From assembly GCA_038206385.1 (NCBI GenBank), contig JBBRAW010000005.1, forward strand, positions 4,241 through 68,240: a stretch of DNA of 64,000 bases, in the 5' to 3' direction. The DNA is from Bacteroidia bacterium. Its GTDB lineage: Bacteria > Bacteroidota > Bacteroidia > AKYH767-A > OLB10. The number at the start of each line of letters is the position of its first letter. The stretch's first letter is position 1. Made by a program: the position numbers and the translations under genes. The notes below the pieces were generated by a model. That model was not told the DNA's origin. It worked only from the letters and a program-made list of their open reading frames with translations, and ran no database searches. Positions 1 to 14,256 of the stretch are shown piece by piece.

Positions 1-2
1 CA

Positions 3-3000
3 TTCAATGCACATCGTATTGATGTTCCAGTTCCAGTTCAAACGGTAGCAGATTTACGAGAACTAGCAAAAAAAACCAATACCAGTTTTGTTACAATTAT
101 GCTCAGCATCTTTGAGACGTTTTTATACAAAGTGACAGGTCAAAAGGAGTTAGTAGTAGGACTCCCATCATCTGGACAAAGCGCTGAAGGACTTTATAAT
201 TTGGTTGGTCATTGCGTGAATTTATTACCTATCAGAACTAGCTTAGATCCCCAAATGACCTTTCTAGAGTATCTAAAGGAGAGACGAGGCTACCTTTTTG
301 ATGCTTTTGATCATCAACAATTTACCTTTGGGAATCTAGTGCGTAAATTAAATATAAATAGAGACCCTTCCCGAATACCATTAGTGCCAGTAGTGTTAAA
401 TGTTGATATCGGTTTTACAGATGGATTTCAGTTTAGCGGTCTTACCTTTGACTTCTCAACAAACCCACGTTTTTATGAGAATTTTGAGCTGTTTCTAAAT
501 GCTTCAGGAAATGGTAATAATTTATTATTAGAATGTACTTATAATATTGATTTATTTGAAACATCGATGATGGAATTGCGCATGCAAGAATTCATCCATG
601 TAATGCAACAAGTGATTACGAATTCCACACAACAGATTGCAAAGATTTCTGCCATGACAACAAAAGAACAGGTTGTATTAAGTACTCTGAATTTGAATAT
701 TAAAGACTATCCAACAAGTAAAGGGATACATGAATTATTCTCAGAGAAAGCGACCTTATTCCCAAATAGAATTGCTACTTCTAGCAATGCCAATAGTTAC
801 TCTTATAGTAGAGTAGATCGTTTATCAACTGCGATTGCAGCTCAACTACAACAACGAGGTGTAAAGCCAGGTGATTTTGTTGGCGTTTGCCTTCCGAGAG
901 TTGTCGAACTACCAATGGTGCTTCTTGCAATCATGAAAACAGGCGCCGCTTATGTTCCATTGGATCCGAATTTTCCTGCCGATCGATTACGATTAATGTT
1001 AGATGATTCACAAGCAGGAATAGTAATAGCAACAAAAAAATTAGCAGCAGATCTTGAATTAACTTCTGAACAAGTATTTTATTTTGATGAAGAAGAACTA
1101 AAAAATTTCACTACCGATTTATTTGTTCCAGTACCTTTTTCTGCGGATCAATTAGCGTATGTACTTTATACTTCTGGATCAACAGGAAAACCAAAAGGTG
1201 TAATGGTAAAACATAGTGGGGTAGTAAATCTCATGACTGATTTACAAACAACTTTTAACTTTAAACCTGAAGATACCTTACTAGCAATAACAACTATTTC
1301 ATTTGATATTTCTGTTCTTGAATTCTTTTTACCACTTCTTAGTGGAGCAGGTGTACATCTTGCAACTAGAGAACAAGCAATGGATGCTACTTGGCTAGAT
1401 AAAACAATTCAAGAATATCCAATTACATATATGCAAGGTACTCCCGCAACATGGGAATTACTTTTAACATCTGGATGGAGAGGTGCAAAACATTTAACAG
1501 TTTTATGTGGAGGAGAAGCTTTACGTGTTGAACTAGCAGAAAAACTTTTTGGTAAAAATTTAGCTGTTTGGAATTTATACGGACCAACAGAAACAACTAT
1601 TTGGTCGACTATAAAAAAAATAGAGATAAGTGATTTTCATAATACACGTAATGGTGGAGTTAGCATTGGTAAAGCTGTTGCCAATACACAATTATATATT
1701 GTAGATGAATTCGGACAACCTTGTCCATTAGGTGTTGCTGGAGAATTATGGATTGGTGGGGATGGTGTTTCAACTGGATACCTCAACCGACCAGAATTAA
1801 ATGCGGAAAAATTTATTCCGAATACTTTTACTTCAGGAATGATTTATCGTACTGGTGATAGAGTATCGGTTGATACAGAAGGAAATCTTCATTTCTTAAA
1901 TCGCCTTGATCATCAAGTAAAAATACGTGGTTACCGAATTGAGTTAGGAGAAATTGAAGCTGCACTAAATAAATCACCAGGTATTCGTCAAGGTGTTGTT
2001 GTAGCACGACAAAATCAATCGGGAGATAATTTTCTTGCTGCCTATTTTATTGCAGAAACGAATGGCATTGAAATTCCTAAATTAGATCTTCAGAAAAAAT
2101 TGATTCAAGCATCACGCGAAAGCATGTCATCAATTTTACCAGATTACATGATTCCTACTGCTTGGATGTTATTGGATAAATTTCCACTTACACCAAATGA
2201 TAAGATCGACAGAAAGGCATTGCCTGATCCACAAATAAATCGTGAAATAACAAGAAGTAATGTATCCGAAGAATCGTTTAGTAAAATTGAAAAAATAATT
2301 GCTGACGTTTGGAAACAAATTCTAAATGTTCAAGAAATAGCACTCGATGATGATTTCTTTAAGTTAGGCGGTCACTCATTACTTGCTGTACGAATGATGG
2401 TTGATTTGGAACATATTACTGGAATAAAATTACCGCTTGCAGTATTATTTACCAATCCTACTATTGGTGCACTGAGTAAATTATATGAAACACCACCAGA
2501 AGATTTAATTTGGAATCCTTTAGTTATCATTAAAGAAACAGGAAGTCGTAAACCATTGTATTTTTCACATGGAATTAGTGGCAACGTTTTCAAGTATCAT
2601 GCATTAGCACAACTGCTCGACAATGATCAACCAAGTTATGGATTACAAGCTATTGGATTAAATGGAAAAGATGAGCCACTATCAGTAATGGAAGATATTG
2701 CAGCACATCATGTAAAAGAAATTATTTCGTTTCAGCCAGAAGGTCCTTATGCACTAGCAGGAGGTTCCTTTGGTGGTTATCTCGCTTACGAAATGGCGTT
2801 GCAATTAAGAGCTCTTGGAAAAGAAGTTAGCTTCTTATGCTTATTCGATTTAGATGCAGCATCAGAACTTGAATTCTTATCAAAAGGAATGAAACAAATA
2901 AAAGGAGCCCAACTTTTTGCTCAAAGATTTGTGAAACGCGCAGTAAGTTTTATAAGTGCTGATAAAGAAGAACGTCAAAAATATCTTCAAGCCAAGATGC

Positions 3001-3371
3001 GAAATAAAAGTAAACAAGGTGCTGGAAATGTTGATTATGATTTAGAATCGTGGCTCGACAAACATAAAATGGTTGAGTTAATAGGTGAAGAGTCCGCTGC
3101 TTATTTCCGAAATATTGAAGAGGCTTGCTACAAAGCTATGACTGATTATAAAATAAAAAAATATGATCGCGACATCACCTTAATACGTGCGCAAGAAGGA
3201 TATTTCAACAATACTTACGCACATGATTTAGGATGGAAACATTTCACAAGTGGAAAAGTGGATGTTCATGTTGTACCTGGTGATCATAACTCGATTTTCT
3301 GGGAACCAAATGTTTTTGAATTAGCTAAAACAGTTAACAAACCCCTTAATCATCTTGCCAAGAAAAAATAA
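3..3371 (+). CDS. NRPS terminal module, 5'-truncated by the window: (C)-A(Gly-type)-T-TE
   Basis: Frame is open from position 3 (FNAHRIDV...), so the gene starts upstream of the window. A-domain motifs YTSGSTGKPKG, FDISVLE, NLYGPTETT, GELWIGG, YRTGD, QVKIRGYRIELGEIE. T domain LGGHSLL. TE motifs GGSFGG and PGDH. Manual specificity code DILQLGLIWK. Confidence 0.93.
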   Translation, partial: FNAHRIDVPVPVQTVADLRELAKKTNTSFVTIMLSIFETFLYKVTGQKELVVGLPSSGQSAEGLYNLVGHCVNLLPIRTSLDPQMTFLEYLKERRGYLFDAFDHQQFTFGNLVRKLNINRDPSRIPLVPVVLNVDIGFTDGFQFSGLTFDFSTNPRFYENFELFLNASGNGNNLLLECTYNIDLFETSMMELRMQEFIHVMQQVITNSTQQIAKISAMTTKEQVVLSTLNLNIKDYPTSKGIHELFSEKATLFPNRIATSSNANSYSYSRVDRLSTAIAAQLQQRGVKPGDFVGVCLPRVVELPMVLLAIMKTGAAYVPLDPNFPADRLRLMLDDSQAGIVIATKKLAADLELTSEQVFYFDEEELKNFTTDLFVPVPFSADQLAYVLYTSGSTGKPKGVMVKHSGVVNLMTDLQTTFNFKPEDTLLAITTISFDISVLEFFLPLLSGAGVHLATREQAMDATWLDKTIQEYPITYMQGTPATWELLLTSGWRGAKHLTVLCGGEALRVELAEKLFGKNLAVWNLYGPTETTIWSTIKKIEISDFHNTRNGGVSIGKAVANTQLYIVDEFGQPCPLGVAGELWIGGDGVSTGYLNRPELNAEKFIPNTFTSGMIYRTGDRVSVDTEGNLHFLNRLDHQVKIRGYRIELGEIEAALNKSPGIRQGVVVARQNQSGDNFLAAYFIAETNGIEIPKLDLQKKLIQASRESMSSILPDYMIPTAWMLLDKFPLTPNDKIDRKALPDPQINREITRSNVSEESFSKIEKIIADVWKQILNVQEIALDDDFFKLGGHSLLAVRMMVDLEHITGIKLPLAVLFTNPTIGALSKLYETPPEDLIWNPLVIIKETGSRKPLYFSHGISGNVFKYHALAQLLDNDQPSYGLQAIGLNGKDEPLSVMEDIAAHHVKEIISFQPEGPYALAGGSFGGYLAYEMALQLRALGKEVSFLCLFDLDAASELEFLSKGMKQIKGAQLFAQRFVKRAVSFISADKEERQKYLQAKMRNKSKQGAGNVDYDLESWLDKHKMVELIGEESAAYFRNIEEACYKAMTDYKIKKYDRDITLIRAQEGYFNNTYAHDLGWKHFTSGKVDVHVVPGDHNSIFWEPNVFELAKTVNKPLNHLAKKK

Positions 3372-3566
3372 TTTATACAATTCGTACGTTATAATTATGT
3401 TTAGATGATTCACAAAAGCATCTGCAATTTATTTAATATGGAAACAGTATAAATTTATTAATTCAAAAACAATAGTTAGTTAAATCGAGTTAGATATTTT
3501 ACCAATACTGAATATCAATTCGACAATCAATAATCACCCATTAAAAATTGCATTACGATTTCTAAC

Positions 3567-6305
3567 ATGACAACAAATGAAGTGAGTGTATTAAATGCGC
3601 TCAATTTAAATATTAAACCCTATCCCTCCACAAAAGGGATACATGAATTATTTTCAGAAAAGGCATTAGCATTTTCAAATAAAATTGCCACTTCGAGTAG
3701 TATCCAAAATTATACGTATGCTCAATTAGATTCTCTTTCAACAGCACTCGCTGCATTATTACAACAACGTGGAATTAAACAAGGTGATTTCGTAGGAGTG
3801 TGTCTTCCACGTATTGTAGAGTTACCAATGGTGCTAATTGCAATTATAAAGGCTGGTGCAGCATACGTTCCCCTTGATCCTAGTTTCCCTGCTGATCGTT
3901 TGCGATTAATGTTGGATGATTCACAAGCACCAATTGTTATTACAACAAATCAATTAGCCGTTGATTTAGAATTAACAACCGAAAGAATATTAAATTTTGA
4001 TGTTACTGCATTAGAGAAAATTCCAAACGGATCTTTTAAACCAGTACCTGTTGTTGAAAATCAATTGGCTTATGTACTATATACATCTGGCTCGACAGGA
4101 AAACCAAAAGGTGTAATGGTAAAACATAATGGTGTTGTAAATCTTATGGTGGATTTAAAAGAACGCTTCAACATAAAACCTGAAGATACATTACTTGCGA
4201 TCTCTACTATTTCTTTTGATATTTCAGTGCTTGAATTCTTCTTGCCATTGCTAAGTGGTGCACGTGTACATCTTGCAACAAGAGAAGAATCAATGGATGC
4301 TACATGGCTTGATAAAACAATTCAAGATTTTCCAATTACTTATTTGCAAGGAACACCAACAACGTGGGAACTGCTTTTAGCATCTGGGTGGAAAGGCGCC
4401 AAACATTTAAATGTTTTATGTGGAGGTGAAGCGTTACGTTTTGAACTTGCAGAAAGATTATTTGGAAATAATTTAGCTGTATGGAATTTATATGGCCCAA
4501 CTGAAACATCTATTTGGTCAACTATAAAAAAGATTGACGAAACAGATTTTAAAAATATCGTGAATGGAGGAATGAGCATTGGTAAAACAATTGCAAATAC
4601 TTTATTATATATTGTTGATGAAACAGGAATACCTTGTCCATTAGGAGTGGCGGGAGAATTATGGATTGGTGGTGATGGTGTATCTGCCGGCTATTTAAAT
4701 CGTCCTGAATTAAATGCTGAAAAATTTACTCCTAATCCCTTTGATGAAGGAAATATTTATCGAACAGGTGATCGTGTAATCGTTGATCCCAATGGAAATT
4801 TACATTTCTTAAACCGCTTAGATCATCAAGTTAAAATACGTGGATACCGAATTGAATTAGGCGAAATTGAAGCCGCATTAAATAAAACTCCAAACATTCG
4901 TTTAGGTGTTGTAGTAGCTCGTCAAGGATCTACTGGTGATAGTTATCTTGCATCTTATTTTATTTCCGATTTAAACGATGGAAGTATCTCCAAAAATGAA
5001 TTACAAAAAAAATTAGCAACTGCTGCTAGAGAAAGTATGTCGACATTTTTACCCGACTACATGATTCCAAATACATATACACTATTAGATAAATTTCCAC
5101 TTACACCGAATGAAAAGATTGATCGAAAAAATTTACCAGATCCACAAATAAATTTCGATCTGATAAAAAAATCATTAAAAGAACAAGCCTTTAATGATAC
5201 AGAAAAAATTATTGCAGAAGTTTGGAAACAAATTCTCAATATTCATGATATTACTCTTGATGATGATTTCTTTAAGTTGGGAGGGCATTCCCTTTTAGCA
5301 GTTCGTATGATGGTAGAACTTGAACATCTTACAAAGGTGAAATTACCACTTGCCGTTTTATTTACGAATCCTACAATTGGATCGCTAAGTAAACTTTATG
5401 ATACACCACCTAGTGATTTAATTTGGAATCCGCTTGTTGTCATTAAAGAAACAGGAACTAGAAAGCCGTTATATTTTGCTCATGGTATTAGTGGAAATAT
5501 CTTCAAGTATTATGAACTTGCTCAACTATTGCACCCTGATCAACCTAGTTATGGATTACAGGCAATAGGTTTGAATGGAAAAGATGAACCACTGTCTAAC
5601 ATGAAAGAAATTGCAGCACATCACATAAAAGAAATTATAAAGTTTCAACCAGAAGGACCTTATGCATTAGCAGGAGGTTCATTTGGTGGTTACCTCGCCT
5701 ATGAAATGGCATTGCAATTAAAAGCACTTGGAAAAGAAATTAGCTTTCTTTGTTTATTTGATGTAGAAGCCGTTTCTGAATTGGAATTTTTATCTACTGG
5801 AATGAAACAAATTAAAGGTGTTCAGTTGTTTGCAGAACGGCTTATTAAACGTGCTGCAAATTTTATCGCATCCGACAATGAAAAACGTCAACAGTACCTT
5901 CAATCTAAACTGAATAAAAAAACAAATCAAAGTGGAAGTCATCAGGAAACTGAACTAGAATCGTGGCTTGATAAACATAAAATGGTAGAACTTATTGGCG
6001 AAGAATCTGCTGCAAGTTTTCGAAATATTGAAGAGGCTTGTTACAAAGCGATGATTGATTATAAAATTGAAAAGTTTAATATAGATCTAACACTTGTTCG
6101 TGCTCAAGAAGGTTTTTTTAACAATACTTTTTCACATGATTTAGGATGGAAACATTTTACCAACGGAAAAGTTGACGTACATGTCATTCCCGGTGATCAT
6201 AATTCTATTTTCTGGGAGCCTTATGTTTTTGAGCTCGCAAAAATTGTTAATGAATCATTATCACATGTTGCTAAAAGAAATGCAATCCGCCGCGTTGAAA
6301 ATTAA
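3567..6305 (+). CDS. Stand-alone NRPS A(Gly-type)-T-TE protein, paralogue of the preceding module
   Basis: Same A/T/TE motifs and same code DILQLGLIWK. Colinear with the previous ORF from its internal MTT.. onward. No C domain. Confidence 0.92.
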   Translation: MTTNEVSVLNALNLNIKPYPSTKGIHELFSEKALAFSNKIATSSSIQNYTYAQLDSLSTALAALLQQRGIKQGDFVGVCLPRIVELPMVLIAIIKAGAAYVPLDPSFPADRLRLMLDDSQAPIVITTNQLAVDLELTTERILNFDVTALEKIPNGSFKPVPVVENQLAYVLYTSGSTGKPKGVMVKHNGVVNLMVDLKERFNIKPEDTLLAISTISFDISVLEFFLPLLSGARVHLATREESMDATWLDKTIQDFPITYLQGTPTTWELLLASGWKGAKHLNVLCGGEALRFELAERLFGNNLAVWNLYGPTETSIWSTIKKIDETDFKNIVNGGMSIGKTIANTLLYIVDETGIPCPLGVAGELWIGGDGVSAGYLNRPELNAEKFTPNPFDEGNIYRTGDRVIVDPNGNLHFLNRLDHQVKIRGYRIELGEIEAALNKTPNIRLGVVVARQGSTGDSYLASYFISDLNDGSISKNELQKKLATAARESMSTFLPDYMIPNTYTLLDKFPLTPNEKIDRKNLPDPQINFDLIKKSLKEQAFNDTEKIIAEVWKQILNIHDITLDDDFFKLGGHSLLAVRMMVELEHLTKVKLPLAVLFTNPTIGSLSKLYDTPPSDLIWNPLVVIKETGTRKPLYFAHGISGNIFKYYELAQLLHPDQPSYGLQAIGLNGKDEPLSNMKEIAAHHIKEIIKFQPEGPYALAGGSFGGYLAYEMALQLKALGKEISFLCLFDVEAVSELEFLSTGMKQIKGVQLFAERLIKRAANFIASDNEKRQQYLQSKLNKKTNQSGSHQETELESWLDKHKMVELIGEESAASFRNIEEACYKAMIDYKIEKFNIDLTLVRAQEGFFNNTFSHDLGWKHFTNGKVDVHVIPGDHNSIFWEPYVFELAKIVNESLSHVAKRNAIRRVEN

Positions 6306-6978
6306 ACCCTATCATCCAACGGCAAATAACCCATTGCTATTTAATCCAGTGTTGGAAAATATATTAGTAATTGTAAAATTAAATTCGACAAGATTAGAAT
6401 ACTATAATTTAACCACTATCGAAAATCTTCATGCAACAAAATACCATCAACAAAAAGATGTGTTATCTTATTCTTGGAGACATCATTTATTGAATACTTG
6501 GTTAAGTAATTATTGCAATAAACCATTTGATCAATTAAACCTCAAAACTACAAAAGAAGGAAAAAATTATTTGGATACATTACCATTCCATTTCAACATT
6601 AGCAAATCAACAACCTACTTAGCCTTTAGTTTTGGGCCTAATCCCATCGGAGTTGATATAGAAACCATAAAAGACTTTAAGCCTTTCATGCCGATTGCAG
6701 ACCAGCATTTTCATGAGAATGAGCAATTACTTTTATCAGAAGAAAAATCGCCATTATCTTTTTTCTCAATCTGGACAAGAAAGGAAGCGCTTCTAAAGGC
6801 AAATGGATCTGGAATTAATGATAACCTAAAAAACTTGGATACAACATCAGAAAGCCATCAAATGGATTCAAGAATATATCAATTGGAAACTTACGCAAAT
6901 GATGAATTTATTGTGAGTCTTGCATATCAAAGTACAGATCCTCTTCTATTAAAAATATGTAATTATAACATTCTATAA
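6280..6978 (+). CDS. 4'-phosphopantetheinyl transferase (Sfp/AcpT-like)
   Basis: GVDIE and WTRKEALLKANGSG motifs. Start placed at ATG 6280, overlapping the NRPS stop; the ORF track start at 6172 is probably too long. Confidence 0.88.
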   Translation: MQSAALKIKPYHPTANNPLLFNPVLENILVIVKLNSTRLEYYNLTTIENLHATKYHQQKDVLSYSWRHHLLNTWLSNYCNKPFDQLNLKTTKEGKNYLDTLPFHFNISKSTTYLAFSFGPNPIGVDIETIKDFKPFMPIADQHFHENEQLLLSEEKSPLSFFSIWTRKEALLKANGSGINDNLKNLDTTSESHQMDSRIYQLETYANDEFIVSLAYQSTDPLLLKICNYNIL

Positions 6979-9896: not shown

Positions 9897-10568
9897 CTAT
9901 TCTTTACCAGAAACAACAACAACGATTTCTCCTTTAACCGTTTTTTGTGAAAAATAAATCTTTAATTCTTCTACCGTTCCACGTTTATTTTCTTCAAACA
10001 TCTTGGTGAGTTCGCGTGAAACAGAAGCTATTCTTTCTGGACCAAAATATTCACAACATTCTTCTAAAAGCTTTACTAATCTGTGTGGTGATTCATAAAA
10101 AACGATAGTACGACTTTCTTCTTTTAATGCTGATAATCGGGTATGTCTTCCTTTTTTTTGTGGTAAAAATCCTTCAAACACAAAACGGTCGCAGGGAATT
10201 CCGCTCATCACTAATGCAGGTACAAAAGCAGTTGCACCCGGCAAACATTCTACTGGAACATCTTCACGTACACATTCTCGAATCAATAAATATCCAGGAT
10301 CACTTATGCCAGGCGTACCAGCATCACTAACCAAGGCAATACTTGTTCCCTCTTTCAATAAGCGTATTACTTCTTTCAATGCTTGATGTTCATTGTGCTG
10401 ATGATGAGAAAGAATTCGTTTCTCAATACCATAATGTTGCAATAAAAATTTAGAAGTGCGTGTATCTTCTGCCAAAACAATATCAACAGACTTTAGAACT
10501 TCAAGCGCCCTCAATGTAATATCTTGAAGATTTCCAATTGGGGTTGGCACTATGTATAACTTCGACAT
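9897..10568 (-). CDS. rsmI: 16S rRNA (cytidine1402-2'-O)-methyltransferase
   Basis: LYIVPTPIGNLQDIT, AEDTR, SDAGTPGISDPG, FYESPHR, RELTK, KGEIV. Confidence 0.96.
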   Translation of the reverse strand: MSKLYIVPTPIGNLQDITLRALEVLKSVDIVLAEDTRTSKFLLQHYGIEKRILSHHQHNEHQALKEVIRLLKEGTSIALVSDAGTPGISDPGYLLIRECVREDVPVECLPGATAFVPALVMSGIPCDRFVFEGFLPQKKGRHTRLSALKEESRTIVFYESPHRLVKLLEECCEYFGPERIASVSRELTKMFEENKRGTVEELKIYFSQKTVKGEIVVVVSGKE

Positions 10569-10656
10569 CGTTGCAAAATTGCCAAAAGAAAACTACTTTT
10601 TACCGAATAGCTTCAATATTTTATTTACTTTCATCAAACTAATCAACATACTAATT

Positions 10657-13600
10657 ATGAGAAAATTTATTTTCGGCTTGCTCATCCTTACGATGATCTC
10701 TTCAAATCCTCTTTCTGCACAACAGGATTATCGTATTAAACTTCAAAGTGGAGCAATTCAACCATCATCCAACCTTGAACAATTCTTGCTTTCACCAAAA
10801 GCTAAAGATGTTTATAACGGATATTATTACCGCTTCATTCAGTTTGAAAGTTTGCCGAACGTTGCACAAAAAGAATCGATCAAAAAAAGTGGATTACTCT
10901 TATTGGATTATATTCCTTCCAATACTTTTATGGTGGCAATCCCTAAAGGGTATGATAGAAAACAATTACGAAATTTCAATATTCGTTCTATCATTCAACA
11001 AGAAGCAAAACAAAAAATAAGTACACATATTGCAGGTGGTTTTTCTTCTTATGCCGTGAATGAAAAAAATACTGTTGATATAATTGTTCAATATCAAAAA
11101 AATATTTCTAGTGATGCGGCAAAAGCTACTGCAATGAATCATGGAAAAATTCTTAGTGTGAATCCAACAAATCATACAATTACTTTACGCATCAACAATA
11201 AAAATTTAAATACATTAGCGGCAGAGAGTTGGGTTTTTTATATTAATTCTATTGCTGCACCAGCTACTCCAGAAGATACTAAAGGCAGAAGTCTTCATCG
11301 TTCCAATGTAATTAATAGTGATTATGCAACAGGTCGTCATTACGATGGTAGTGGAGTTGTTGCGGGATTAGCAGATGATGGAGAAGTAGGTCCGCATATT
11401 GATTTTCAAGGACGATTAACCAATCATCTTGTTGGCACTGGTGGCTCTCATGGAGATATGACAATTGGAATTCTTGCTGGAGGAGGTAACCTTGATCCAA
11501 CAATTCGTGGAATGGGTACAGGCGCTTATTTACATGTTTATGATATCAATGGTTATCCACACATCATCAATGCAGTAAATAATTTTGATACTTTAGGAAC
11601 TATCATTTGCTCTACTTCTTATTCACAAGGGTGCAACGAATATTCTACTGACACACAATTTGGTGATCAGTTGTTACATGAAAATCCGCAATTAGAATTT
11701 GTTTTTTCTGCAGGAAATAATGGTGGTGGTGATTGTCAATATGGTGCTGGTGCTGGTTGGGGAAATATAACCGGCGGATATAAAACTGGAAAAAATGTTA
11801 TTTCATGTGGTAACTTAAGTGCGCTTGAAATACTTGACAACTCAAGTAGTAGAGGTCCCGCATCTGATGGTCGTGTTAAACCTGATATTTGTTCGAATGG
11901 TTTAGGTCAACTTTCAACCGATCAAGATAACACCTATCAAGTTGGTGGAGGAACATCTGCTGCATCTCCAGGAATTGCAGGAATCCTTACTCAACTTTAT
12001 CAAGCATACAAATCATTAAATGGAAATCAAAATCCAAATGCTGCATTAATAAAAGCTAGTTTATTAAATAGTGCAGAAGACATTGGAAATCCTGGTCCTG
12101 ATTATACTTACGGTTGGGGCAGAGTAAATGCATTACGTGCTTTAAAAACAATTGAAGACGGTAGATATATTTTAGATAGTATTTCAAACGCAGGAGTTAA
12201 TACGCATACCATAACAGTTCCTGCTGGAGTGAATCAAATGCGTGTTATGGTTTATTGGAATGATCCAGAAGGCACAGCGCTTGCATCAAAAGCTTTAGTA
12301 AATGATCTTGATATTACTTTATCCGATCCATCATCTGCTATTTTTAATCCATGGATATTAAATCCTACACCCAATGCAATTACTTTAAATGATCCTGCTG
12401 TTCGAGGTGTTGATACCTTAAACAACATGGAACAAGTTACGATTGATAATCCATCAGCAGGAGTTTATACTCTCAATGTAAATGGCACCTCTATTCCGCT
12501 TGGTCCGCAACAATATTATATCGTTTATGAATTTCGAACAAGTGATATAACATTAACATATCCTCAAGGCGGTGAAGGTTTTGTTCCAAATGAAACTGAA
12601 GTAATTCGTTGGGATGCTGTTAAAGGATTAGGAAATTTTACACTTGAATTTTCAACTGACAATGGCGGTTCGTGGAATACTATTGCAGCAGTAAATGATC
12701 AAACGTTACAATATGAATGGACTGTTCCAAATACCTTAACTGGTGATGCATTAGTACGTGTAAGTCGTGGTAGTTTTATCGACGTTAGTGATACTACTTT
12801 TACTATTATGAATCTTCCGCAAAATATTATTGTCGATTGGGCTTGTCCTGATTCAATTAGACTCACTTGGGATCCTGTTGTAGGTTCCACAGGATATACG
12901 GTTTATAGTTTGGGAACAAAATATATGGATCCAATAGCAAATCCAATTTCTAATTCCATTGTACTTTATAATACCAATCCAACATTAGATTATTGGTATA
13001 GTGTAAGTGCAAAAGCATCAAACGGTTCTAATGGTCGTCGCGCTTTAGCGATACAAAAAGTAGCTGGTGTTTTTAATTGTCCATTAGCTTTAGATGTTCA
13101 AATAAATTCCATCAATCCAGGACCAGGAACTTTACTAGATTGTCAAATCAATAGTGCTTTATTTGTTAACATAGAAATAAAAAATTCAGGGCAAACTGCT
13201 ATTAATAATATTCCAGTTAGTTTACAATTGGATGGAAATTTTGTTGTTTCTGATATTGTTCCTGTAACAATTGCACCAAACTTAACGACTAATTGGACTT
13301 TCACTGTTCCGATAAATATTACAACTGCTGGATTGCATACTATTAAAACTTGGGCCACTTACTCTGGCGATCTTAATAGTTTTAATGATACGCTTACAAC
13401 AAATATTACTGTTATTAACGGAACACTTTCTACTATTCCATTACTGGAAGATTTCGAATCTTTTACGCTATGTAATACCACGACCGATTGTGGCGTTACT
13501 ATATGTGGATTAAATGATGGTTGGATAAACTCAGTAAATGGAATTGAGGACAACATCGATTTTCGTACTAATGAAGGTCCCACTCCTTCTGCAAATACGG

Positions 13601-14256
13601 GCCCTGATGTTGATCATACTTTAGGTACAGCAACAGGAAATTATATTTACTTAGAAGCATCTGGTGGATGTGATCAACAATTAGCAATTTTAACAAGTCC
13701 GTGTATTGATTTAACAAATGTTTTAAATCCTAATCTATCATTTTGGTATCACATGTATGGAACTAATATGGGAGAATTACACTTAGATGTATATGCAGAT
13801 GGCAATTGGACAAACGATGTAATGATTCCTATTTCTGGTGATCAAGGTAACCAATGGTTAGAGGGTAATTTATCATTGTCAAACTATACAAGTAAAATTA
13901 TCAATATTCGTTTCAGGGGAATAACAGGTGTAGGATTTCAAAGTGACTTATCTCTTGATGACATCAGCATACAAAATACCGTAGGGCTTACTCCAACAAC
14001 TAATTTAAATGGAACTGTAACGTTGTTCCCAAATCCATCATCAGGAATTTTTAATCTCGAATTAAAAAATGTGGATACACATAATTTATCCATTTCGGTA
14101 TTGGATGTTTCTGGGAGAACTATTTGGCAACAAAAAACTTCACAGATAACAAATGAAAAACAATTAATAGCTCTTCACAATTTACAGAAGGGGATTTATT
14201 TTTTACAACTTCGTAATGGTAACGCAATTCGACAAATTAAATTAACAATAATTTAG
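10657..14256 (+). CDS. Secreted S8 (subtilisin-like) peptidase with Ig-like and MAM-like domains and T9SS C-terminal sorting domain
   Basis: Signal peptide from ATG 10657. Catalytic D (ADDG), H (SHG) and S (GGTSAASP); GRVKPDI. MAM-like segment (YIYLEAS, LSFWYHMYG). C-terminal FPNPS...GIYFL. Confidence 0.9.
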   Translation: MRKFIFGLLILTMISSNPLSAQQDYRIKLQSGAIQPSSNLEQFLLSPKAKDVYNGYYYRFIQFESLPNVAQKESIKKSGLLLLDYIPSNTFMVAIPKGYDRKQLRNFNIRSIIQQEAKQKISTHIAGGFSSYAVNEKNTVDIIVQYQKNISSDAAKATAMNHGKILSVNPTNHTITLRINNKNLNTLAAESWVFYINSIAAPATPEDTKGRSLHRSNVINSDYATGRHYDGSGVVAGLADDGEVGPHIDFQGRLTNHLVGTGGSHGDMTIGILAGGGNLDPTIRGMGTGAYLHVYDINGYPHIINAVNNFDTLGTIICSTSYSQGCNEYSTDTQFGDQLLHENPQLEFVFSAGNNGGGDCQYGAGAGWGNITGGYKTGKNVISCGNLSALEILDNSSSRGPASDGRVKPDICSNGLGQLSTDQDNTYQVGGGTSAASPGIAGILTQLYQAYKSLNGNQNPNAALIKASLLNSAEDIGNPGPDYTYGWGRVNALRALKTIEDGRYILDSISNAGVNTHTITVPAGVNQMRVMVYWNDPEGTALASKALVNDLDITLSDPSSAIFNPWILNPTPNAITLNDPAVRGVDTLNNMEQVTIDNPSAGVYTLNVNGTSIPLGPQQYYIVYEFRTSDITLTYPQGGEGFVPNETEVIRWDAVKGLGNFTLEFSTDNGGSWNTIAAVNDQTLQYEWTVPNTLTGDALVRVSRGSFIDVSDTTFTIMNLPQNIIVDWACPDSIRLTWDPVVGSTGYTVYSLGTKYMDPIANPISNSIVLYNTNPTLDYWYSVSAKASNGSNGRRALAIQKVAGVFNCPLALDVQINSINPGPGTLLDCQINSALFVNIEIKNSGQTAINNIPVSLQLDGNFVVSDIVPVTIAPNLTTNWTFTVPINITTAGLHTIKTWATYSGDLNSFNDTLTTNITVINGTLSTIPLLEDFESFTLCNTTTDCGVTICGLNDGWINSVNGIEDNIDFRTNEGPTPSANTGPDVDHTLGTATGNYIYLEASGGCDQQLAILTSPCIDLTNVLNPNLSFWYHMYGTNMGELHLDVYADGNWTNDVMIPISGDQGNQWLEGNLSLSNYTSKIINIRFRGITGVGFQSDLSLDDISIQNTVGLTPTTNLNGTVTLFPNPSSGIFNLELKNVDTHNLSISVLDVSGRTIWQQKTSQITNEKQLIALHNLQKGIYFLQLRNGNAIRQIKLTII

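Follow-up and report, generated by a model that had tools for sequence, protein, structure and literature searches.

How can a nonribosomal peptide synthetase (NRPS) unit be of use if it activates, carries and releases an amino acid but has no condensation (C) domain? On the usual view such lines lengthen when a module is duplicated, and for the new module to be of service a C domain is normally required. The question is raised by two adjacent open reading frames, ORF1 and ORF2, at the start of a 64,000-nucleotide stretch of DNA from a metagenome-assembled genome (MAG) of an uncultured Bacteroidia bacterium (GCA_038206385.1, contig JBBRAW010000005.1, positions 4,241 to 68,240; G000:C5:4241-68240 in our numbering), which we call the window. 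ORF1 combines a C domain with adenylation (A), carrier (T) and thioesterase (TE) domains, and ORF2 is a second, C-less copy of the A-T-TE part. The explanation that we consider best overall, with a probability of roughly 0.6, is that an old duplication within a hybrid operon of NRPS and polyketide synthase (PKS) type produced ORF2, and that ORF2 is productive in the same pathway.

Two termination modules in tandem

ORF1 occupies positions 1..3371 of the window on the + strand, read from window base 3; the window start falls within its C domain. With the contig sequence upstream of the window, the full gene (G000:C5:3520-7611) encodes a C-A-T-TE protein of 1363 amino acids, whose Condensation domain matches PF00668 over residues 28-467 (E = 1.8e-90) and has an intact HHIICDGWS motif of the HHxxxDG type. 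In the window part, Pfam identifies the C-terminal half of this domain (6..674, + strand, profile positions 224-453), followed by AMP-binding, PP-binding and Thioesterase domains. The A domain, core and C-terminal subdomain together, spans 738..2204; the T domain spans 2298..2480, with the codon of the phosphopantetheine serine at 2376; the TE spans 2553..3302, with the codons of its serine, aspartate and histidine at 2766, 2847 and 3285 (all + strand). Since adenylation motifs A3-A10, the carrier serine and the TE Ser/Asp/His are all present, ORF1 is an ordinary NRPS termination module.

ORF2 (3567..6305, + strand, 912 amino acids) begins at the C-A linker, and Pfam finds AMP-binding, PP-binding and Thioesterase domains in it but no condensation domain of its own. 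Its A core lies at 3654..4697, its T domain at 5211..5393 (serine codon at 5289) and its TE at 5466..6209 (Ser, Asp and His codons at 5679, 5760 and 6198), all on the + strand. BLASTP aligns the two proteins without a gap through to both C-termini, with 688 of 904 residues identical (76%), and pairs M218 of ORF1 (MTTKEQVVL) with M1 of ORF2 (MTTNEVSVL), so that ORF2 corresponds to ORF1 residues 218-1122 in window numbering. Domain search and alignment thus agree with a first-pass annotation of this DNA, which had described two glycine-type termination units, the second a C-less duplicate that starts at an internal methionine of the first and is colinear to the end. It had also held that both copies keep the T-domain serine and the TE serine and histidine. 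Located residue by residue, these are the T serine at 792 of ORF1 and 575 of ORF2 (GGHSL), the TE serine at 922 and 705 (GGSFGG) and the TE histidine at 1095 and 878 (GDHNS); the TE aspartate is kept as well, at 949 and 732 (LCLFD). Nucleotide identity is 75% over the 904 codons and amounts to 80%, 89% and 57% at the first, second and third codon positions. A scan of the whole genome, which is 94% complete, found the C domain of ORF1 as the sole Condensation domain, and no further NRPS elsewhere.

Specificity of the adenylation domains

We read the ten pocket positions by anchoring on motifs A4 and A5 and by HMMER alignment to solved structures. ORF1 and ORF2 have the same code, D-I-L-Q-L-G-L-I-W-K; in ORF2 the codons are those of D235 at 4218, Q278 at 4347, L299/G301 from 4416, I330/W331 from 4512 and K517 at 5115. 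The A core of ORF2 aligns best to that of AB3403 (4zxh), which differs in the pocket only by the conservative changes L322V and I330V (DILQLGVVWK), and the pocket of 5u89 is identical to those of ORF1 and ORF2 at every position that the alignment covers. We take the A domains of both structures to be glycine-activating, and by this ten-residue match the two A domains of the window are predicted to be glycine-type. A search of literature text for the code strings gave no matches.

Could ORF2 instead belong to the NRPS-like A-T-TE enzymes that act on aryl alpha-keto acids? These quinone and furanone synthetases resemble ORF2 in having the order A-T-TE with no C domain, but they lack Asp235, which binds the alpha-amino group. 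In ORF2 this residue is kept (residue 218, in FDISV), as in all orthologues. Since Asp235 and a full amino-acid pocket are retained, ORF2 is not of the alpha-keto-acid type. Motif anchoring and structure alignments therefore bear out the first-pass annotation, which had assigned DILQLGLIWK to both copies and had separated ORF2 from the quinone synthetases on the basis of Asp235.

Duplication history and selection

A maximum-likelihood tree of the A-T-TE columns of 25 sequences groups all copy 2 sequences in one clade (support 100/98), nested in a clade (100/99) that contains only the copies 1 and 2 of the window's genus. The sister of this larger clade is P0014, a C-A-T-TE protein of the closest outgroup lineage whose gene is directly followed by a phosphopantetheinyl transferase (PPTase) gene. 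The copy 1 and copy 2 subtrees have the same species topology. The copy 2 clade and the matching topologies indicate that a single tandem duplication of A-T-TE, starting at the C-A linker, took place in the genus ancestor, before the species of the genus diverged.

The duplication is old. Nei-Gojobori estimates of synonymous divergence (dS) between paralogues range from 1.2 to 1.6. Between the genomes G000 (that of the window) and G003, copy 2 has a dS of 0.58 and a ratio of nonsynonymous to synonymous divergence (dN/dS) of 0.058, and copy 1 has a dS of 0.40 and a dN/dS of 0.039; deeper orthologue pairs give dN/dS of 0.09-0.16. Along the genes, identity at synonymous codons stays level and no tract of gene conversion is seen, so that recent conversion between the copies can be rejected. 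The tandem pair occurs in four independent assemblies (G000, the GenBank MAG G003, G001 and a Logan contig), which, with the 75% nucleotide identity of the copies, rules out the assembly duplication that the first-pass annotation had named as a possible refutation. On these estimates ORF2 is ancient and has been held under strong purifying selection; it is neither artefact nor pseudogene. Both copies having long remained intact under selection, the extra copy should do something useful. Of the roles that the first-pass annotation had suggested (two release points, use of the ORF1 C domain in trans, glycine dimerisation or a redundant copy), full redundancy is unlikely in view of the long-term purifying selection.

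How do the two copies differ? Fixed differences occur in just 12 alignment columns, and in six of these the derived state is that of copy 2 (T213S, A265T, T315S, T502N, H649Y and A650E). A265T corresponds to GrsA position 282, and T315S to GrsA position 329, beside pocket residue 330. In the tree, the stem leading to copy 2 is not marked by a burst of change. In the A core the copies evolve at an equal rate (103 versus 115 differences in 400 residues for the pair G000-G001), so that glycine activation appears equally constrained in both. In three of four pairs, by contrast, copy 2 is 2.2-2.7 times faster in the T domain (6 versus 16 differences in 68 residues, p = 0.03) and 1.6-2.5 times faster in the TE domain (45 versus 82 in about 272, p = 0.0002), and its linkers are faster too. 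For the fourth pair, G001-L021, the ratios are 1.25 for T and 1.3 for TE, neither significant. These faster parts of copy 2, carrier and release, are either under relaxed constraint or tracking another partner; their pace would be a mild argument against ongoing docking to the C domain. The helix after the T-domain serine (SLLAVRMMV) is invariant in both copies. The one segment with a dN/dS near 1 is the 17-residue A-T linker (window 5157-5207, ORF2 residues 531-547, and its equivalent in ORF1), where dN/dS is 0.6-1.1 in both copies and the paralogues are 24-35% identical; by this measure the linker behaves as a free spacer.

Distribution among relatives

We searched 83 species-representative genomes of the same family, together with 24 from the order's other families. 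Homologues of the termination module are present in 46 of the 83 family genomes and in none of the 24 others. The number of copies in relatives, which the first-pass annotation had singled out as a check, is one throughout the family except in the window's genus, where G000, G001 and G003 have two (G002 is represented by a 3.5-kb contig fragment). All carriers are MAGs of uncultured Bacteroidia. In G021 and G010 the locus runs from htpG through a 2240-aa gene, a 1350-aa gene and the PPTase gene to an S41 peptidase gene. Its site and gene order match those in the window's genome, except that ORF2 is missing; in G010 a ferritin-like gene lies between the PPTase and S41 peptidase genes. The operon with one termination module is thus vertically inherited, at a fixed site between htpG and the S41 peptidase gene, in this uncultured Bacteroidia family.

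The cluster is also subject to decay. In another lineage of the family (L020:2335-6035, in contig JARVMI010180777.1 of GCA_029981735.1), htpG is followed by about 950 bp of stop-riddled C-domain remnants, the large PKS-NRPS gene is gone, and an intact 914-aa A-T-TE frame and a PPTase gene stand behind the remnants. The close relative P0018 (1357 aa) keeps the full C-A-T-TE, and the A-T-TE frame of L020 is either freshly orphaned or kept for its own sake. Module fragments with internal stops occur at G081:C44:97195-98358, G082:C29:23044-24195 and G005:C14:802371-804062, from which it appears that the cluster has been repeatedly lost in some genera, though it is syntenic in most. Two candidates for a second stand-alone A-T-TE were rejected: P0015 is an open remnant of a decayed cluster, and P0017 is cut by the end of its own contig.

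The operon and its upstream assembly line

The window opens with the 3' part of a compact operon of hybrid NRPS-PKS type, about 14 kb long, with htpG divergent upstream and the S41 peptidase gene downstream. The gene order is a loading and extension gene with the domains A(Pro)-T, ketosynthase (KS), acyltransferase (AT), acyl carrier protein (ACP) and aminotransferase, then ORF1 with C-A(Gly)-T-TE, ORF2 with A(Gly)-T-TE, and an Sfp-type PPTase gene. The upstream gene ends 6-12 nt before ORF1. On contig C5 it is cut by the contig end and encodes the KS-AT linker, AT, ACP and a class-III aminotransferase. The end of contig C161 encodes A-T-KS, and its last 21 nt equal the first 21 nt of C5; this overlap lies inside the KS-AT linker, the joined reading frame would have about 2228 aa, and relatives carry A-T-KS-AT-ACP-aminotransferase as a single reading frame of 2227-2246 aa. 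As read from these sequences, the break between C161 and C5 is one of assembly, not a biological one. Taken together across P0007, P0005 and P0006, the Pfam domain order is KS-AT-ACP, a class-III aminotransferase and then C-A-T.

What would this line make? The best matches of the loading A domain are TycB1 and GrsB1, both proline modules, and it shares their pocket, DVQLIAHVVK; the starter is therefore an amino-acid A domain and not a fatty-acyl-AMP ligase. The first-pass annotation had considered an N-acyl-glycine product. This idea falls, since the C domain of ORF1 is not a lipid-starter C: it is an elongation C domain that sits immediately behind the proline-loading gene and is fed by its PKS-aminotransferase unit, with no lipid starter. 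By colinearity, the predicted chain would be a proline extended with malonate and transaminated to a beta-amino acid, which would then be joined to glycine.

The AT-rich spacer between ORF1 and ORF2 (3372..3566, + strand, 195 nt) is not conserved between species. We found in it no terminator and no convincing sigma-70 promoter, with a scan that does not cover Bacteroidota promoters; no structured RNA or riboswitch (no Rfam match, fold z-score -1.5); and no C-domain remnant, the best local alignment score of 22 being within the range of shuffled sequences (maximum 33). A read-through fusion of ORF1 and ORF2 was considered and rejected: they are in the same frame here, but the spacer has five further in-frame stops, and that of G001 is 173 nt long, which is no multiple of three.

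The PPTase gene (6280..6978, + strand, 232 aa) lies behind ORF2. Its longest reading frame begins at TTG 6172, and by comparison with a 232-aa orthologue the start is most likely the ATG at 6280, from which the gene overlaps the 3' end of ORF2 by 26 nt. The overlap of a dedicated PPTase gene with the ORF2 stop, reported in the first-pass annotation, is thus found with this start too. The protein combines the ACPS domain (PF01648, 5.2e-14) with the N-terminal AASDHPPT half (PF22624, 6.6e-05, below the gathering score), as expected of the Sfp type, and has an NCBIfam match to an AusB-like family (5e-20) under its cut-off. Given this overlap, and with no terminator, riboswitch or conserved element in the spacer, the genes of the operon are probably co-transcribed.

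Outside the operon, the window encodes at 10552-14256 (+ strand) a secreted protease of 1234 aa with subtilase S8, PPC and MAM domains and a C-terminal sorting tail of the type IX secretion system. Such a MAM domain is unusual in a bacterial S8 protease, since most known examples belong to animal proteins.

Comparison with known systems

The closest structural relative of ORF2, for both A core and TE, is AB3403 (ABBFA_003403) of Acinetobacter baumannii (PDB 4zxh/4zxi), which has the same C-A-T-TE order as ORF1. However, its single gene is not followed by a C-less duplicate, and its upstream partners are not of the A(Pro)-T-KS-AT-ACP-aminotransferase type. For the upstream part of the line, the nearest parallel is MycA/ItuA, subunit A of the mycosubtilin and iturin synthetases. 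Its order is KS-AT-ACP-aminotransferase-C-A-T, and a beta-amino acyl thioester is passed to the C domain; PKS extension and an in-line class-III aminotransferase feed a C domain there as here. MycA/ItuA starts from a fatty-acyl ligase, whereas the present line has a proline A-T starter, one amino acid module after the aminotransferase, and a split into two genes. To our knowledge, no Bacillus system of the MycA/ItuA type has a duplicated termination unit.

C-less A-T-TE proteins are found elsewhere in Bacteroidota. Members of one family, 876-885 aa long and 40% identical to ORF2 over 98% of its length, have the pocket DILQLG(L/M)IWK and are linked to a family 2 glycosyltransferase (GT2). In loci from Mucilaginibacter-like and other Bacteroidota (L026:8701-12631 and L027:8713-12658), the A-T-TE gene lies directly behind a 395-aa GT2 gene; the L026 pair stands in a polysaccharide-synthesis neighbourhood, and there is no C domain close by. 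We know of no characterised GT2-linked protein of this glycine type in Bacteroidota, and the family may serve to transfer glycyl groups to a glycan or lipid. Its members, such as the 876-aa protein of Mucilaginibacter, are C-less A-T-TE proteins like ORF2, but of independent origin and in another neighbourhood.

Systems in which one assembly-line protein acts on another offer further comparisons. In the miramide/rimosamide/detoxin family, MirE is KR-T-TE (KR, ketoreductase), MirF is A-T-C-A-T-KS and MirG is C-A-T-TE, and the TE of the C-A-T-TE protein was proposed to ligate an acyl group to an intermediate on the carrier of another protein (PMC9503745). As in the present line, a carrier-bound proline is extended with malonate by a KS, and one pathway contains two TE domains; there, however, the ketone is reduced rather than transaminated, the TE proteins are not paralogues, the other amino acids differ, and the mechanism is itself only a proposal. 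Stand-alone A-T modules (SyrB1, Alb04, ramoplanin, enduracidin) supply an aminoacyl thioester in trans, and tandem TE-TE domains define a termination family that includes lysobactin, teixobactin and Pseudomonas lipopeptides (both in PMC8949500). The A-T units of the SyrB1/Alb04 type have no TE and serve a module whose A domain is missing or dead, whereas here the main line has its own A domain, predicted to be active, and the extra unit has a TE. In the tandem TE-TE family two TEs are fused behind one T, whereas the TE of ORF2 has its own A and T on a separate gene and so does not belong there. Our search of open-access text found no published C-A-T-TE gene with its own C-less A-T-TE paralogue behind it.

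What does the second copy do?

We infer from the sequence that ORF2 is an expressed, PPTase-primed, glycine-loading protein. If its glycyl thioester were only hydrolysed, ATP would be wasted and the gene would be lost; ORF2 therefore probably feeds the same pathway. Our tentative proposal, which we hold at somewhat less than even odds, is that ORF2 adds one extra glycine to the product of the single-copy relatives with no C domain of its own. We take as hints the single C domain of the genome, the faster evolution of T, linker and TE in copy 2 beside an A core that keeps pace with copy 1, the small number of fixed differences (12), the missing intergenic terminator, and the existence elsewhere in Bacteroidota of glycine-type A-T-TE proteins that stand alone with no C domain. 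The extra peptide bond might be made by either of two routes. In the first, the glycyl thioester on the T domain of ORF2 could capture, through its amine, the chain bound to the ORF1 TE; in the second, the TE of ORF2 could pass its glycyl group to a free amine of the ORF1 product, which in this proposal would be the proline-derived beta-amino acid joined to glycine. That a TE of ORF1 or ORF2 does form this bond in trans between the paralogues, the genus making a glycine-extended version of the family metabolite, is a more speculative step, which we regard as doubtful. By analogy, the miramide/rimosamide pathway might serve as a partial precedent for the extra glycine.

Several considerations weigh against a productive, glycine-adding ORF2. 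With identical pocket codes and TE domains that are much alike, the two modules could just as well catalyse the same reactions, and T and TE may have changed faster in copy 2 simply because constraint on them was relaxed. There is little direct precedent for a TE that elongates a chain in trans. Another C domain might be encoded in the portion that the genome assembly lacks. The cluster family is an orphan, carried by uncultured MAGs only. Finally, the predicted intermediate has a free pyrrolidine nitrogen through which it could cyclise prematurely, so that the predicted product is itself uncertain.

Would the observations be explained as well if ORF2 merely provided a parallel acceptor? The C domain of ORF1 would then use the T domain of ORF2 in trans and the TE of ORF2 would release the same product, so that only flux rises. 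The identical pocket code and motifs, the invariant SLLAVRMMV helix in both T domains, the availability of a single C domain in the genome and the small number of fixed differences, just 12, are all consistent with such a role. However, a T domain acting in trans competes poorly with the covalently linked one in cis, so the gain would be small; redundancy is rarely kept over a dS above 1.2 at a dN/dS of about 0.06; and the roughly 2.5-fold faster T domain of copy 2 (16/68 versus 6/68) fits the loss of one docking partner. We therefore consider a pure dosage role unlikely. Still less probable is a function outside the line, in which ORF2 would act as a glycine-activating transferase or oligomerase, with a lipid, a sugar polymer or a small amine as acceptor or a Gly-Gly diketopiperazine as product. 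The C-less glycine-type A-T-TE proteins (about 880 aa, 40% identity) that adjoin a GT2 gene in polysaccharide-type neighbourhoods lend it some plausibility, as does the faster evolution of T and TE; but the tree gives ORF2 an origin separate from that family, no new partner gene has been recruited beside it, and in all four species it has stayed between ORF1 and the PPTase gene with no terminator.

That ORF2 is a non-functional relic, whether an assembly duplication or a decaying, unexpressed copy, seems very improbable to us. Clusters of this family do decay, as the broken C domain and deleted PKS gene of L020 and the stop codons in G081, G082 and G005 illustrate. The divergence between the copies is nevertheless beyond what an assembler could create, independent assemblies agree on the pair, and ORF2 is intact in all four, with a dN/dS of 0.06-0.16 and every catalytic residue kept.

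Implications

The genus thus keeps a C-less A-T-TE copy under purifying selection in all its species with the pair, and the single-copy sister lineages provide natural controls for its effect. If the copy only raises flux, it is a modest curiosity. If it adds a residue, cross-talk between the carrier and TE domains of paralogues can create an elongation or tailoring step, which would be useful for NRPS engineering; and if a TE makes the extra bond, this would be a natural gain of a module with a thioesterase in the role of the condensation domain. The analysis also defines a compact orphan cluster of the Pro-malonate-aminotransferase-Gly type, conserved at a single site of the chromosome in an uncultured family of Bacteroidia and of a size that suits synthesis and heterologous expression.

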